57,895 nucleotides of DNA from an uncultured Candidatus Saccharibacteria bacterium (GTDB taxonomy: Bacteria; Patescibacteriota; Minisyncoccia; Phycocordibacterales; DSPV01), in assembly GCA_964349135.1 (NCBI GenBank), contig CAYGFK010000005.1, positions 1 to 57,895 on the forward strand, read 5' to 3'. Below the pieces are notes generated by a model that was not told where the DNA came from, made no database searches, and saw nothing but the letters and a program-made list of their open reading frames with translations. This document shows, piece by piece, positions 6,623 to 43,905 of the stretch. Numbering within the stretch: the first letter of the stretch is position 1; each line of letters begins with the position of its first letter. The translations under genes were made by a program, and so were the position numbers.

Positions 6623-6695
6623 GCGCGGTTAGCTCAGTTGGTAGAGCATCTCATTGACGTTGAGAGGGCCGGGGGTTCGAGTCCCTCACCGCGCA
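6623..6695 (+). tRNA. tRNA-Val(GAC)
   Basis: GCGCGGT/ACCGCGC acceptor stem, anticodon arm TCTCA-TTGACGT-TGAGA, and TTCGA T-loop. CCA not encoded. Confidence 0.95.
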
Positions 6696-6746
6696 CAATA
6701 ATTCACGAGGACAGCTGGTAGCTGTCTGAGTGAAGTATCATTGCGA

Positions 6747-6893
6747 CGCGATGAGGGACTCGAAAGACGGAGGCCGCGAAGCCCCGCCATGGGCGGGTCG
6801 GCCGAGTCGGGGTCGCGACCTTTCGCGTAGCGAAAGAGTTGTGACCGAGTCCCGTTTATTTTATAGCGCGATGAGGGACTCGAAAGACGGAGG
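6747..6893 (+). repeat. Structured cassette (type A) flanked by inverted and direct copies of the tRNA-Val 3' end, plus a second truncated copy
   Basis: 6747-6764 is the reverse complement of tRNA 6676-6693 (17/18). Cassette spans 6765-6846, and CGAGTCCC at 6846-6853 repeats the tRNA. A 27-bp direct repeat lies at 6747-6773 and 6867-6893. Confidence 0.85.
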
Positions 6894-6896
6894 TCG

Positions 6897-7820
6897 TTAT
6901 TTTGTATGAATATGGAGGTAAATATCCTCAAGCGCTTTGACCGCGTCGCCTGCGGCGATATTGTTCTGGTGGTAGAGTCCGTCGGTGCAGTCTCCTGCGG
7001 CCCAGATACCCGTTACCGAGGTCATTTGAGTCCGAGGGTCTACTTTAATGTGTCCCCAGGTGTCGAGCTTAAGAAGGTCTTTGGCAAAGCCGGTTGCCGG
7101 GATAAGTCCAATCTCAACGAAAATGCCTCCAATCGGCATCTCTTTCTCTTCTCCAGTTTTAGTATTTTTATAAACGACGCTTTTGACAAATTTATCTCCC
7201 TTGACCTCAGTTACTTCCGTGTTTCTTTCAATACGGACTTTCTCGTTTTTCGAAAGTTTTTCGACGGTAACTGGGTCTGCACGGAATGAGTCACCACGTA
7301 TGAATATCGTCACTGATTTACAGTACGCGGCAAGCTGAGCGGCCGACTCAAGAGCGGCATTGCCTCCGCCAATCACCAGCGCATCTTGCCCCGCAAAGAG
7401 CGGGCCATCACAGGACGCACAGTAGGTAAGTCCTTTGTGCTCAAATATATCAGCCCCTTTTGCAGGCAACCGACGTCGGCTGGAACCGGTCGCGATGAGA
7501 ACCGTTTTCGTGTCGTACGCTCCCTTAGGGGTCGTGACAAGAAATCCTTCACCTTTCTTTTCGATATGGTCTACCAGTTCTCCTTGGTGAATTGAGACAG
7601 CATCGCTCGCATACGCTTCCAAGTGTTTTTTTAGATTCGTGGCAAGCTCGGGGCCTGAGATGGAGACGGTGCCAATCCAGTTCTGGATATCTTCTGAGAC
7701 AATGGATTGCCCTCCGAAATCTTTGGTCAGAAAGAGCGTTTTCAGTTTCTTTCTGGCGGCATAAACACCTGCGGCAACGCCTGCCGGTCCTGCGCCGATG
7801 ATGGTGAGGTCATAATGCAT
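6897..7820 (-). CDS. trxB: Thioredoxin reductase-like FAD-dependent oxidoreductase
   Basis: IIGAGPAG, YCASCDG (CxxC), VIGGGNAA and AAGD motifs. Start placed at ATG 7820. Confidence 0.88.
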   Translation of the reverse strand: MHYDLTIIGAGPAGVAAGVYAARKKLKTLFLTKDFGGQSIVSEDIQNWIGTVSISGPELATNLKKHLEAYASDAVSIHQGELVDHIEKKGEGFLVTTPKGAYDTKTVLIATGSSRRRLPAKGADIFEHKGLTYCASCDGPLFAGQDALVIGGGNAALESAAQLAAYCKSVTIFIRGDSFRADPVTVEKLSKNEKVRIERNTEVTEVKGDKFVKSVVYKNTKTGEEKEMPIGGIFVEIGLIPATGFAKDLLKLDTWGHIKVDPRTQMTSVTGIWAAGDCTDGLYHQNNIAAGDAVKALEDIYLHIHTK

Positions 7821-7860
7821 AGGGTATAGAATATAGGGTTTACCGTGTCGGGGCAAGTAG

Positions 7861-7897
7861 AAAAAGAAAGCGCCGTCCGCTATAGCGGACGGCGTTT
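7861..7897 (-). terminator. Intrinsic terminator after ftsZ
   Basis: GCGCCGTCCGC-tata-GCGGACGGCGT hairpin with a T-tract on the - strand. Confidence 0.75.
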
Positions 7898-7909
7898 CGT
7901 GTAATACTT

Positions 7910-9097
7910 CTATTTCTTTCTCCTGAGAAATGCCGGAACCGCACCCCAATCATCATCATCAGAAATAGGAACCGCTTTCTCTTCCTTTTTTACATCAACA
8001 GCCGGCTCCTCTTTTTTCTTCACCTCATCTTTCTTCTCCTCCTTGTTGCTACTTCCCATGAGTGTATTAAAGATAGTTGACCCGCTCTTCTTCTCATCGG
8101 CCGGTTCGGTCGCGGTAGAGAAGAGTCGGCGATGCATCGCGCTTTCCGGGAACCCTGAAGCAATTACGGTGATTTTCACTTCGTTCTTCTTGAGGCGGTC
8201 GTCTTTGACCGTACCAAAGATAACTTTCGCATCACTGTCGATTGATTCGGTGATGACCTTCGCTGCATCCTGAATCTCGAACATGGTAAGGTCTTCGCCA
8301 CCGGCGATTGAGAAGAGGACCCCTTTCGCGCCCTGGATAGAAAGGTCGAGGAGCGGGGAGTTGATAGCCATGCGAGCCGCTTCTTCGGCGCGTTTCTCTC
8401 CTGAGGCGATACCAATACCCATGAGTGCCGACCCTGCGTTTTCAAGAATGGATTTGATGTCCGCAAAATCAGTGTTGATGATGCCGGGAATCGTAATGAG
8501 GTCAGAGATGCCTTCGACGGCTTGTTTGAGAATGTCATCGCACATTGCAAAGGCACTGCGGGCCGTGGTCTCCTTTGAGACGTTGGCGAGGAGGCGGTCG
8601 TTCGGGATGACGACGGTTGCATCAACCGCTTTCTTTAGTTCATCGAGACCTTGTTCTGCATAGCGCGAGCGCTGTTGCCCTTCGAATGAGAACGGTTTTG
8701 TGACAATGGCGACGGTGAGTGCTCCAAGTTCTCGCGAGATTTTTGCGATAATCGGTGATGAACCGGTACAGGTGCCACCTCCCATACCACCCGCAATGAA
8801 AACCATATCCGCACCCCTAATGGCTTCTTGAATTTCTTCCTTATTTTCTTCAACGGCCCGCTTGCCGAGTTCCGGATTCATGCCGGTTCCAAGTCCGTGT
8901 GTGAGATTTTTGCCGATATGAATTTTTTTGCGCGCCAAAGAGTTTTGGAGGTCTTGGGCATCGGTGTTTATGGCGATAAACTCAACGCCACGCACCTTCG
9001 AGGTAATCATGTGATTGACAGCGTTTTTTCCCGAACCGCCAACGCCAAGGACTTTAATCCTTGCGAACGCTTCAACTTCTGGTTTTACTTGTGGCAT
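7910..9097 (-). CDS. ftsZ: Cell division protein FtsZ
   Basis: IKVLGVGGSG, GGMGGGTCTG tubulin signature and C-terminal VPAFLRRK. Confidence 0.98.
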   Translation of the reverse strand: MPQVKPEVEAFARIKVLGVGGSGKNAVNHMITSKVRGVEFIAINTDAQDLQNSLARKKIHIGKNLTHGLGTGMNPELGKRAVEENKEEIQEAIRGADMVFIAGGMGGGTCTGSSPIIAKISRELGALTVAIVTKPFSFEGQQRSRYAEQGLDELKKAVDATVVIPNDRLLANVSKETTARSAFAMCDDILKQAVEGISDLITIPGIINTDFADIKSILENAGSALMGIGIASGEKRAEEAARMAINSPLLDLSIQGAKGVLFSIAGGEDLTMFEIQDAAKVITESIDSDAKVIFGTVKDDRLKKNEVKITVIASGFPESAMHRRLFSTATEPADEKKSGSTIFNTLMGSSNKEEKKDEVKKKEEPAVDVKKEEKAVPISDDDDWGAVPAFLRRKK

Positions 9098-27166: not shown

Positions 27167-27289
27167 GCTTGAAGGCACGGGCGGGAATCTCGGCTACCGC
27201 CGCGGGTGGTTCTCGATTTCACTCCGTTCAATAACGAGAACCCTTTCGATTCCCGCACGCACGCAAGCTGTTGCGTGCTCTGTGCTTGA
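27167..27289 (-). repeat. Structured cassette (type B) with inverted and direct copies of the tRNA-Cys 3' end
   Basis: 23-bp exact repeat at 27167-27189 and 27284-27306. A 12-bp inverted copy lies at 27245-27256 and the cassette spans about 27190-27246. Confidence 0.85.
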
Positions 27290-35871: not shown

Positions 35872-35955
35872 GCGCAGGTGGCGGAGTGGTCAATCGCAAC
35901 AGACTGTAAATCTGTCGGCCAATGGCCTACGAAGGTTCGAATCCTTCCCTGCGCA
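35872..35955 (+). tRNA. tRNA-Tyr(GTA)
   Basis: ACAGA-CTGTAAA-TCTGT anticodon arm and a long variable arm. Confidence 0.95.
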
Positions 35956-36158
35956 ATAAAACAAAGGAGGCGGGATGCGAAAGCGTCCCGCCCCTCTTGT
36001 TTTAACGCGGGGAAGGATTCGAAAGACGGAGGCGCGAAGCCCCGCTGAAAGCGGGTTGCCGAGTCGGGGTCGCGACCGCCGAAGGCGAGTCGTGACCGAA
36101 TCTATAGGTTCCCTGCGCAATAAAACAAAGGAGGCGGGATGCGAAAGCGTCCCGCCCC
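35945..36158 (+). repeat. 50-bp direct repeat (tRNA-Tyr 3' end + hairpin) enclosing an inverted tRNA copy and a type A cassette
   Basis: 35945-35994 is identical to 36109-36158. 36006-36023 is the reverse complement of 35936-35953 (17/18). Cassette spans 36024-36097. Confidence 0.9.
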
Positions 36159-42302: not shown

Positions 42303-42435
42303 ATGCCGGGAGAGATATCGGCTACCACGTAGCCAGGTGTTTTTCGACCTCGCCGACTCGGTAACGAAAAACCTTTCGATTCTCTCACGCCGTGAAGCAG
42401 TTCACGGCTTCCCGTCAATTTCGCTTTGCTCATAA
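42303..42435 (-). repeat. Structured cassette (type B) with inverted and direct copies of the tRNA-Leu(CAA) 3' end
   Basis: 13-bp repeat at 42303-42315 and 42435-42447. Inverted TTCGATTCTCTC at 42375-42386. Cassette spans about 42318-42376. Confidence 0.8.
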
Positions 42436-43630: not shown

Positions 43631-43643
43631 CTATTCCTTCTTT

Positions 43644-43905
43644 TTTCGTCCCGGCTGATGCATATCGCACGCTTTGTTTGAACAGCGTTCGGGAATGGTT
43701 TTCGGTCACACCTCTCACGTTCGCCGTCGCGAACGTTCGGGTGCGACCCCGGCTCGCGGTTTTTGCTTCTGCAAAAACATCGCTCCGCCTTACGAAAACC
43801 TATGCGTACACCGTGAAGACAGTGTACTACTTCTCCACTTTCTTTCGTCCCGGCTGATGCATGTCGCACGCTTTGTTTGAACAGCGTTCGGGAATGGTTT
43901 TCGTA
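43644..43905 (-). repeat. 61-bp duplication of the topA 3' end enclosing a type A-like cassette and a 10-bp inverted target copy
   Basis: 43644-43704 vs 43843-43903 (60/61 identical). TACGAAAACC at 43791-43800 is the reverse complement of 43896-43905. Cassette spans 43705-43792. Confidence 0.9.

Follow-up and report, generated by a model that had tools for sequence, protein, structure and literature searches.

Behind the tRNA-Val gene of an uncultured Candidatus Saccharibacteria bacterium the tail of that same gene recurs twice in antisense, and the question raised by the locus is what these copies are. The stretch of DNA analysed, of 57,895 nucleotides, is referred to below as the window. 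A first-pass annotation had noted the two copies, the first followed by a full cassette and the second cut off at a trxB stop codon, and had proposed repeated insertion or tandem amplification at one site along with sequestration of the tRNA 3' half in a read-through transcript. Its description, the full cassette and the tandem amplification were all borne out, while the membership of the cassette in a very large family of units at tRNA tails had been missed. We regard it as rather probable that the two antisense copies represent the 5' closing arms of units arranged in tandem, and that these units belong to a gene-less insertion element, structured and present in many copies, which is guided by base pairing to the 3' ends of tRNA genes. 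The element is occasionally found at the ends of other genes, e.g., topA.

The units behind tRNA-Val

The tRNA-Val(GAC) gene is intact, lacks an encoded CCA, and is the host gene of the element. Its nucleotides 54-72 (TTCGAGTCCCTCACCGCGC) were used to search both strands of the window with up to two mismatches allowed. The matches were tRNA-Val itself and two minus-strand copies, located at 6746-6764 (17/19) and 6866-6884 (18/19), each of which is directly followed by AGACGGAGG; in 100 shuffles of the window, the number of such antisense copies expected by chance was 0. Both are part of a 30-nt direct repeat, CGCGATGAGGGACTCGAAAGACGGAGG(C/T)CG, found at 6747-6776 and 6867-6896 (120 nt apart, 29/30 identical), and a 24-mer including AGACGGAGG occurs at these two sites only, both in the window and in the whole 711-kb genome. 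The features of the locus are as follows.

6623-6695, forward strand: tRNA-Val(GAC) (ARAGORN; Rfam tRNA, 69.3 bits)
6676-6694, forward strand: D1, nt 54-72 of tRNA-Val, i.e., the T-loop and the 3' strands of the T stem and acceptor stem; the sequence to which both arms are antisense
6696-6746, forward strand: spacer hairpin H0 (CAATAATTCACGAGGACAGCTGG/TAGCTGTCTGAGTGAAGTATCATTG, then CGA), without a U tract
6747-6853, forward strand: unit 1 as a whole, complete, with its 3' arm shrunk to 8 nt
6747-6765, forward strand: 5' arm of unit 1, antisense of tRNA nt 54-72 with one A.C mismatch
6763-6765, forward strand: J12 of unit 1 (AAA), the first two A complementing T54 and T55
6766-6845, forward strand: core of unit 1, from alignment, RNAalifold, covariation and covariance model R1 (96.9 bits, E = 2e-29, this unit being itself a seed of the model)
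6766-6768 with 6806-6808, forward strand: P2a of unit 1, GAC/GUC
6769-6771 and 6804-6805, forward strand: internal loop of unit 1, GGA/GA
6772-6803, forward strand: P2b variable hairpin of unit 1, followed by J23 (GGG)
6812-6819 with 6838-6845, forward strand: P3a of unit 1, GUCGCGAC/GUUGUGAC, which holds the family-invariant G.U pair 6815.6842
6820-6836, forward strand: P3b hairpin of unit 1, followed by the bulged A6837
6846-6853, forward strand: 3' arm (D2) of unit 1, a direct copy of tRNA nt 56-63 only, CGAGTCCC
6854-6865, forward strand: A+T-rich linker between the units, GTTTATTTTATA
6866-6896, forward strand: unit 2, truncated, with an 18/19 arm, J12, the 5' strand of P2a, GGA and the first bases of P2b (R1, 26 bits)
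6897-7949, reverse strand: thioredoxin-reductase-like (trxB-like) gene, convergent (Pfam Pyr_redox_2, 3.8e-43)

The cassette after the first copy is thus complete and ends with GTGAC followed by CGAGTCCC (6841-6853), and all of the family marks are present in unit 1: arms of P1 built from the target, J12, P2a, the GGA/GA loop, P3a (GGUCG/UGACC) with its G.U pair, and the bulged A. Unit 2 duplicates the 5' end of unit 1 almost exactly. In both antisense copies an A stands opposite C67, where a perfect antisense would have G, so the two copies derive from each other and were not independently templated by the present tRNA. Judged by this shared A, unit 2 arose locally by tandem duplication of unit 1. 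Homology between the two ends at 6896, within 3 nt of the trxB-like stop codon (6897-6899, reverse strand), which abuts the truncation point; a deletion or rearrangement beside the trxB-like gene is the simplest reading of the truncation. Tandem units are frequent in the family and were also observed at the Asp and Glu loci of this genome and in two others (G025 and G111).

Three simpler accounts of the repeats were discarded. Chance or a simple local palindrome is ruled out by the shuffles and by the existence of the family described below. A 59-aa open reading frame (6730-6909) in which AMRDSKDGGR occurs twice is an artefact of the direct repeat and not a coding repeat. A pseudo-tRNA on the minus strand fails because the stretch 5' of the minus-strand TTCGAGTCCCTC is unable to pair as a T stem.

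Comparison with relatives places unit 1 in time. The results from BLAST analyses indicate that homologues of H0 occupy the spacers behind Val-GAC (genomes G004, G002 and G078), Val-TAC (G026) and Leu-CAG (G041). As these homologues lie behind other tRNAs and in other families, H0 is a part of the element that travels with the core and not the trailer of the tRNA. Behind Val-GAC, the same spacer and unit are also present in two genomes of the genus, G004 and G002. The downstream tail copy of G004 is truncated and carries an interruption, much as the rest of D2 has been lost from unit 1 in the window; that of G002 matches perfectly (18/18), and the arm there has ceased to match in its distal part. 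Position 57 of the T-loop is G here and A in G002, alike in the tRNA, the arm and the tail copy, which points to concerted change or re-insertion. The genes flanking the Val-GAC units differ within the genus. The most likely reading is that unit 1 is an old copy common to other members of the genus, in which the displaced tail has decayed to 8 nt.

A structured core between target-copying arms

A BLAST search of relatives with positions 6697-6896 returned many loci per genome, and a second site in the window behind tRNA-Tyr. Two sister units are found in the window.

36006-36119, forward strand: unit behind tRNA-Tyr (35872-35955), with the core as in unit 1 and other hairpin loops
43687-43808, reverse strand: unit at the 3' end of topA, a non-tRNA target

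In the Tyr unit, a 6-nt insert interrupts the tRNA tail that forms the 3' arm, and downstream of this arm the terminator of the tRNA occurs for a second time. The arm of the topA unit, GGTTTTCG plus TA, is antisense to TA followed by CGAAAACC, and a copy of the final ~60 nt of topA stands on either side of the unit. A covariance model, R1, built from 12 aligned units, identified 13 strong units in the 711-kb genome, and its matches include units outside the seed behind tRNA-Ser(GGA), Ser(GCT), Ile, Gly and Glu. In the layout common to the units of this genome, the tRNA is followed by a spacer hairpin or a terminator, next by the antisense tail copy, and then by the core and a direct copy of the tail. 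Each unit is ~100 nt in length, of which the core accounts for ~80 nt. The consensus of the core reads GAA-AGRCGGAGG, a variable hairpin, GAGNNGGGGUCGCGAC, a second variable hairpin and GUYGUGAC, after which the tail copy starts from C56 of the T-loop.

The core folds as a three-way junction on the tRNA-sense strand. In the RNAalifold prediction from 12 units, P1 is formed by the two arms, P2a continues through the GGA/GA loop into P2b, and P3a is joined via the bulged A to P3b; compensatory changes occur in 15 of the 27 pairs. Among 34 units aligned with the model, 97.6% of the cells pair and double changes are found in 22 of the 27 pairs; this alignment was fitted to the model and so favours the structure, and the margin over the controls is large. 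None of 500 shuffles reached the observed values, and slid controls paired at 33-46%. The three base pairs of P2a, for example, occur as GAC/GUC, AAC/GUU, ACC/GGU, GGC/GCC and GCC/GGC. The G.U pair of P3a is invariant in 32 of 33 sequences, and further G.U pairs are tolerated on the tRNA-sense strand only. On the opposite strand a G.U pair would read C.A, which assigns the fold to the tRNA-sense strand, either as RNA or as a folded single strand of DNA. In many units the arm is bipartite, with a small hairpin (loop AACTGCT) at exactly the point that corresponds to the exit of the D and anticodon arms from a tRNA.

Searches of Rfam 15, in which the catalogued self-cleaving ribozymes and the bridge and omega RNAs are included, returned only tRNAs for the units of the Val region at E <= 10, and four well-preserved units were without a match at E <= 1. 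The Rfam models for tmRNA and tRNA-like structures gave no match, and YrlA gave a sub-threshold hit to the neighbouring tRNA genes of another locus (27.9 bits vs a 69-bit cutoff). Given that the units have no Rfam match, hammerhead and other known ribozymes, T-box, tmRNA, YrlA and introns were set aside as identities; a hammerhead-like string near the arm (CGAUGAG...GAAA) is the complement of the T arm. A full-text search of the literature found no description of the element, which thus appears to match no described RNA family or mobile element that we could find.

The arms, by contrast with a fixed core site, follow each target. The 5' arm complements the 3' strand of the tRNA, T-loop included. 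It was considered whether the arm might instead be a copy of the tRNA's own 5' strands, as would be left by a deleted tRNA duplicate; the G.U positions and the T-loop complement say otherwise. Thus, opposite U64 the arm bears A, whereas G50 is the base that tRNA-Val itself places there; in Asp, T69 is likewise faced by A. The analogy with a primer-binding site was likewise rejected, as the arm has no complement of CCA. In a set of 31 further units, D2 always begins at C56, and its usual end is the discriminator or C74. The match of D2 to the tRNA tail is 18/18 at about 15 loci, i.e., a direct repeat at both ends of the insert is a family-wide feature. At several loci the arm is complementary to the real tRNA at 15-18 of 18 positions and D2 is decayed (L065, L068, L070, L073, L078, L082 and the Val locus). 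There is a tentative two-state pattern, in which a perfect arm accompanies a decayed D2 and a perfect D2 accompanies a short arm; because many arms carry a hairpin or bulge, this pattern is partly an artefact of ungapped scoring.

The copying extends across the joint, that is, between positions 55 and 56 of the tRNA. Relative to the joint, the antisense copy runs from -2 to about +17, with the sense copy beginning at +1. J12 opens with a dinucleotide that does not belong to the core and is complementary to the one immediately left of the joint in the intact target: AA for TT at 28 tRNA loci, TA for TA at topA of this genome (G000), TG for CA at topA of G002, G004, G047 and G041, and GA for TC at a tRNA-Gly with an unusual T-loop (G118). 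These two bases are unable to pair inside the unit. The arm must therefore have been copied from the uninterrupted target, or else pairs with it.

Distribution and signs of gain and loss

With model R1, units were detected in 123 of 151 genomes of the order to which the window belongs, with up to 25 per genome of 0.6-1 Mb. In a phylum-wide sample of 201 genomes they were found in 9, of which 3 are from the window's own order and 6 from other classes; the 7 listed genomes of the window's class that fall in other orders are all without units. A strict core pattern was present at at least 120 loci in a collection of species-representative genomes and had no match in viral contigs. Among the listed matches, the labels are Paceibacterota/Parcubacteria groups, Saccharibacteria (these labels are automatic) and Elusimicrobia. 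In Elusimicrobia and a few otherwise labelled MAGs, the unit is again behind a tRNA, and the arms are matched. About 25 of the 31 further units inspected in other genomes lie 20-60 nt behind a tRNA on the same strand. The upstream tRNAs in this set are Val, Trp, Ala, Asp, Arg, Gln, Leu, Met, Gly and Lys; one unit is behind a tmRNA-like tail, and one is behind a tRNA with a group I intron.

Related genomes differ in which sites are occupied. One lineage of spacer and core follows Val-GAC, Val-TAC and Leu-CAG in different families. Within a single genus, the tRNA-Tyr site is filled in three ways: by one unit in the window, by a different one in G002, and in G004 by a pair of units whose core is of another type. 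The 3' end of topA is occupied in 8 sampled genomes from several families (G000, G002, G004, G005, G047, G026, G041 and G019), empty in 9 (G001, which is of the same genus as the window, G010, G012, G030, G035, G040, G046, G055 and G059), and holds a relic in G060. Such occupied, empty and differently occupied sites among close relatives indicate that the element is mobile.

The topA site also suggests which DNA was inserted. A native-type terminator stands after D2, and D1 has its own stop codon; from their placement, the insert is best read as a replacement 3' end, the spacer, the arm and the core, in that order. The arms of topA units are only 8-10 bp in length. In G000, G002, G004 and G005, both D1 and D2 are open for TKTIPERCSNKLCExHQPGRK. 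The two copies differ by ~25% in G002, G004 and G005, mostly synonymously. In G002 there are about 10 synonymous and 2 non-synonymous codon differences, and Tyr replaces a zinc-ligand Cys in D2. The synonymous bias fits either the import of one copy from another functional topA or the translation of both.

No open reading frames were found within the units, and the frames of at least 40 aa across the ~200-nt Val insert are spurious and derive from the repeats. The neighbouring genes at six loci showed nothing recurrent, and in L147 the unit has a gene for a large serine recombinase at a distance of ~1.4 kb. Reverse transcriptase (PF00078) is absent from G000 (13 units), G047 (25 units), G101, G041 and G064, and was found in 9 of 21 genomes with the element and in 6 of 20 without it. 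Its absence from unit-rich genomes, and its failure to track the element, argue against retro-mobility, and retrotransposition was rejected for this reason. The units are not MITEs or IS-derived repeats either, since the arms differ per locus and copy the local target, and the direct repeat ranges from 8 to ~60 nt.

A probable base-pair-guided element and its alternatives

From these observations we infer an insertion model in which the arm would have a guide role and the catalyst would be either the core or an enzyme. The inserted DNA would consist of the replacement copy of the gene 3' end, the spacer, the arm and the core, and would enter between positions 55 and 56. Entry at this point with a replacement tail leaves the gene intact and displaces the original tail downstream. 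The arm would act as a base-pairing address that docks the target strand on the junction core, beside the joint of core and C56, next to which the junction has its invariant bases, and strand exchange would be performed by the folded core itself or by an enzyme encoded away from the units. Considerations against this reading are that the units contain no open reading frame and that a pre-formed circle carrying the tail of one tRNA would produce a dead chimaeric tRNA on entering another. A more specific proposal, which we put forward tentatively and hold to be doubtful, is that the core carries out a programmable strand swap as a small RNA of a new kind (or as a folded strand of DNA), being either catalytic itself or the recruiter of an enzyme. 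The arm might then dock any sequence starting with C-R-A, normally the T-loop of a tRNA, place the 55/56 phosphate beside the core/C56 joint, and allow the two downstream segments to be exchanged.

The sequestration suggested by the first-pass annotation agrees with the predicted folding of a read-through transcript. In the minimum-free-energy fold of 6623-6860, tRNA nt 54-73 are paired with arm 1, with H0 at the tip, and the cloverleaf is not favoured. The predicted advantage over an enforced cloverleaf is 10.7 kcal/mol for the tRNA, H0 and arm 1 only, 6.1 kcal/mol for a transcript through unit 1, and 16.0 kcal/mol for one through the unit 2 stub, in which the tRNA is paired with arm 2 and unit 1 forms a closed fold of its own; these values are for unmodified RNA at equilibrium and ignore co-transcriptional folding, tRNA modification and processing. 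Sequestration by the arm is thus a thermodynamic prediction of 6-16 kcal/mol, and no terminator-like site was found between tRNA-Val and the arm. It might be that the arm exists for this purpose, pairing in cis with the tRNA 3' half in precursors so as to sequester it, destroy it or regulate its maturation. The pairing of J12 with T54 and T55, which is possible in the tRNA context only, would be in keeping with such a role, as would the 15-18/18 complementarity that several arms have kept beside a decayed D2. Long quasi-palindromes, however, can stay perfect through templated DNA repair with no need of an RNA function, a simple antisense action has no need of a conserved 80-nt core, and the topA arm, at 10 nt, lies ~90 nt from its complement. 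Moreover, like arms occur at loci with a terminator between the tRNA and the unit (a strong one at Tyr here, another at Asp in G138), which argues against obligatory co-transcription, and the strong Tyr terminator means that sequestration cannot be the general purpose of the family. Cis-regulation by the arm is, in our view, quite unlikely. As antisense and sense tail copies are the rule in the family, the complementarity at Val stems first from the construction of the element. We consider it unlikely too, if a little less so, that the unit is a host or selfish small RNA gene scaffolded on a tRNA, co-transcribed with it and excised by RNase P, RNase Z and the CCA-adding enzyme as a stable minihelix mimic of arm and D2, the core having a function of its own such as protein binding. 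The reproduction of acceptor and T stems by arm and D2, the usual end of D2 at exactly the discriminator or C74, the bipartite arms with the AACTGCT-loop hairpin at the exit point of the D and anticodon arms, the RNA-type covariation with its invariant G.U, and the position behind strongly transcribed genes are all what such an RNA would show. It would leave unexplained the covariation of J12 with the target, as those bases cannot pair within the unit, the topA units with arms of 8-10 bp, the presence of up to 25 paralogues with different arms, and the loci at which D2 has decayed (Val) or a terminator precedes the unit; the arm, besides, follows the complement of the 3' strand and not the 5' strand of the tRNA (U64 in Val, T69 in Asp).

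Excision as RNA has also been weighed, in a scheme where D1, spacer, arm and core are removed together and the gene body is joined to D2 as an alternative 3' exon, the arm presenting the 55/56 joint and then the core/C56 joint to one active site. The pairing of the arm across the upstream joint (with the 2-nt overlap) and with D2 resembles P1/P10 of group I introns, D2 is 18/18 identical to the tRNA tail at many tRNA loci, and both topA frames are open in G000, G002, G004 and G005, with mostly synonymous differences in G002. This bias is, however, equally explained by import from another functional topA, and G002 D2 has Tyr for a zinc-ligand Cys. With few exceptions the upstream tRNA is intact, no tRNA emerged when six loci lacking a called tRNA were spliced virtually, D2 is degenerate at the Val locus, at topA of G041 and elsewhere, and terminators would lie inside the putative intron (Tyr). 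We regard this scheme as highly improbable. Among these loci, L081 is a decayed 5' part of tRNA-Leu running into a unit and not a clean case for splicing. A direct repeat from the T-loop to the 3' end of a tRNA is the classical signature of T-loop-targeting integrases, and such a repeat is present here; with the large serine recombinase gene ~1.4 kb from the unit in L147, it might suggest the scar or satellite of an integrase-driven island, the repeat being attL/attR and the remainder a degraded att arm. That the inserts are 120-250 nt without an open reading frame, that the core has been kept with compensatory changes across an order and into another phylum, that the arms are antisense to each different target, and that a single genome can have one core lineage behind many different tRNAs make this the least probable of the readings considered.

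The base-pair-guided insertion element, which remains our preferred reading, shares features with several known systems and is identical with none of those compared. As with integrative elements that target the part of tRNA or tmRNA genes between T-loop and 3' end (tyrosine-integrase prophages, islands and ICEs) and with their gene-less derivatives (cis-mobilisable elements), the tRNA is left intact and a replacement 3' end is supplied; the direct repeat from T-loop to tRNA end, the displaced native tail downstream, and the use of gene 3' ends (topA) as targets are also held in common. Unlike those elements, the units have no integrase or open reading frame, are 100-250 nt in length, contain a covarying three-way-junction core and a target-antisense arm, form tandem arrays, and occur as one lineage at many tRNAs per genome. 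A single-stranded segment that pairs with both sides of the reaction site is known from group I introns (P1/P10), the IS110 bridge RNA and the IS1111 seekRNA; the guide-like arm described here spans -2 to about +17 and covaries with the target. In contrast to group I introns and bridge RNAs, there is no Rfam match and no adjacent transposase, and the fold is far smaller than an intron; moreover, the host gene is uninterrupted, and a copy of the downstream exon is carried along. With integron attC sites and the CTX-phi attP hairpin, the units share imperfect inverted repeats, conserved unpaired or extrahelical bases, and stems in which structure counts for more than sequence, but their stems copy each target and not a fixed core site, and the G.U pairs point to RNA or to one of the two strands in particular. 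Finally, the paired ends mimic the stack of acceptor and T arm, with the 3' end at the discriminator, as in the tRNA-like domain of tmRNA, viral tRNA-like structures, mascRNA and YrlA; here, however, the T-loop is replaced by an 80-nt junction, and it is the neighbouring tRNA that is copied and not one fixed tRNA.

At the Val locus, the complementarity of arm and tRNA is a feature of construction, and misfolded read-through precursors are its testable prediction. For annotation, the family accounts for many of the 'tRNA fragments', 'att scars' and odd trailers in assemblies of Patescibacteria and Elusimicrobia. If the family is as it appears, it represents a very abundant and uncatalogued genetic element that chooses its targets by base pairing without an encoded protein, and that occupies up to half of the tRNA genes in some genomes of the candidate phyla radiation. 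It would bear on how selfish DNA is tolerated and spreads in minimal genomes, on the evolution of tRNA loci, and on breaks of assemblies at these loci, and possibly on the repertoire of programmable RNA- or DNA-guided rearrangement systems. Should the strand swap prove true, the unit would be a gene-less, self-addressing module for integration or trans-splicing that spreads within genomes and between phyla, i.e., Patescibacteria and Elusimicrobia.

Duplicated units and duplicated topA ends

Two unit arrangements involve duplication, one in contig C10 of the window's genome (G000) and one at topA, a gene that sometimes carries a unit in place of a tRNA.

G000 contig C10:4600-4935, orphan pair of units with tRNA-Asp-type arms
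window 43634-43900, minus strand, topA end, two copies flanking a unit (further loci L087, L088, L089, L095 and L096)

The orphan pair has no tRNA-Asp upstream, despite its arms. It differs very little from the second of the units that follow the real tRNA-Asp (C10:1784-1885), which marks the pair as a unit array copied by segmental duplication. At topA, the unit is flanked by two copies of the gene's final ~20 codons. Both copies retain an open frame in G000, in G002 and G004 of the same genus, and in the relatives G005, G047 and G026, and the differences between copies are mostly synonymous; in the downstream copy of G002, a zinc-ligand Cys is replaced with a Tyr.

Irregular arms, a second core and an interrupted tRNA gene

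In many 5' arms, which are antisense to the target's tail, a small hairpin interrupts the antisense sequence, and its loop is often AACTGCT (L066, L135, L147, L150, L165, L185, L186 and G000 C10:4700-4745). This hairpin lies between the acceptor-complement and the T-stem-complement, so that the unit outline is cloverleaf-like. The D2 tail copies (the 3' arms) frequently include an insert of 2-11 nt where the T-loop meets the T-stem.

window 36100-36119, Tyr unit, insert TATAGG
G000 C10:1870-1895, Asp unit, insert AAAGCCG
L028:518-545, Val unit of G004, insert CATTACTATCT

Two units of the window share the arm, core and tail-copy layout of the main family, with a shorter and different core, GAA-AGGKUUYUCG...GGUAGC|CGA, and neither was detected by R1, the family's covariance model. 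The end of the Leu-CAA unit adjoins the next ORF.

window 27190-27262, minus strand, tRNA-Cys, then the unit
window 42318-42390, minus strand, tRNA-Leu(CAA), then the unit

A unit also lies behind the 3' end of an interrupted tRNA gene, whose anticodon loop contains roughly 230 nt of inserted, intron-like sequence and which was not called by ARAGORN.

L080 (G146:C40), interrupted tRNA gene on the same strand as the unit, roughly 300-590 nt upstream

Neighbouring reading frames and contig ends

window 6897-7949, minus strand, trxB-like ORF
L147 75-1595, plus strand, large serine-recombinase-like ORF (506 aa, FIYTRKSTDDKDRQ...SISDQ)

The trxB-like ORF, as listed, has a TTG start followed by about 45 residues ahead of the FAD-binding motif, and its Pfam match begins at residue 46; the real start is probably further downstream. 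The serine-recombinase-like ORF, in a MAG labelled Bdellovibrionales, is located ~1.4 kb from a unit and is a single, non-recurrent case.

The contigs of L097, L100, L101 and L103 stop just past topA, and the units of L064, L121 and L144 are located at contig starts. That several assemblies are broken at, or adjoining, units suggests that unit repeats fragment short-read MAG assemblies.
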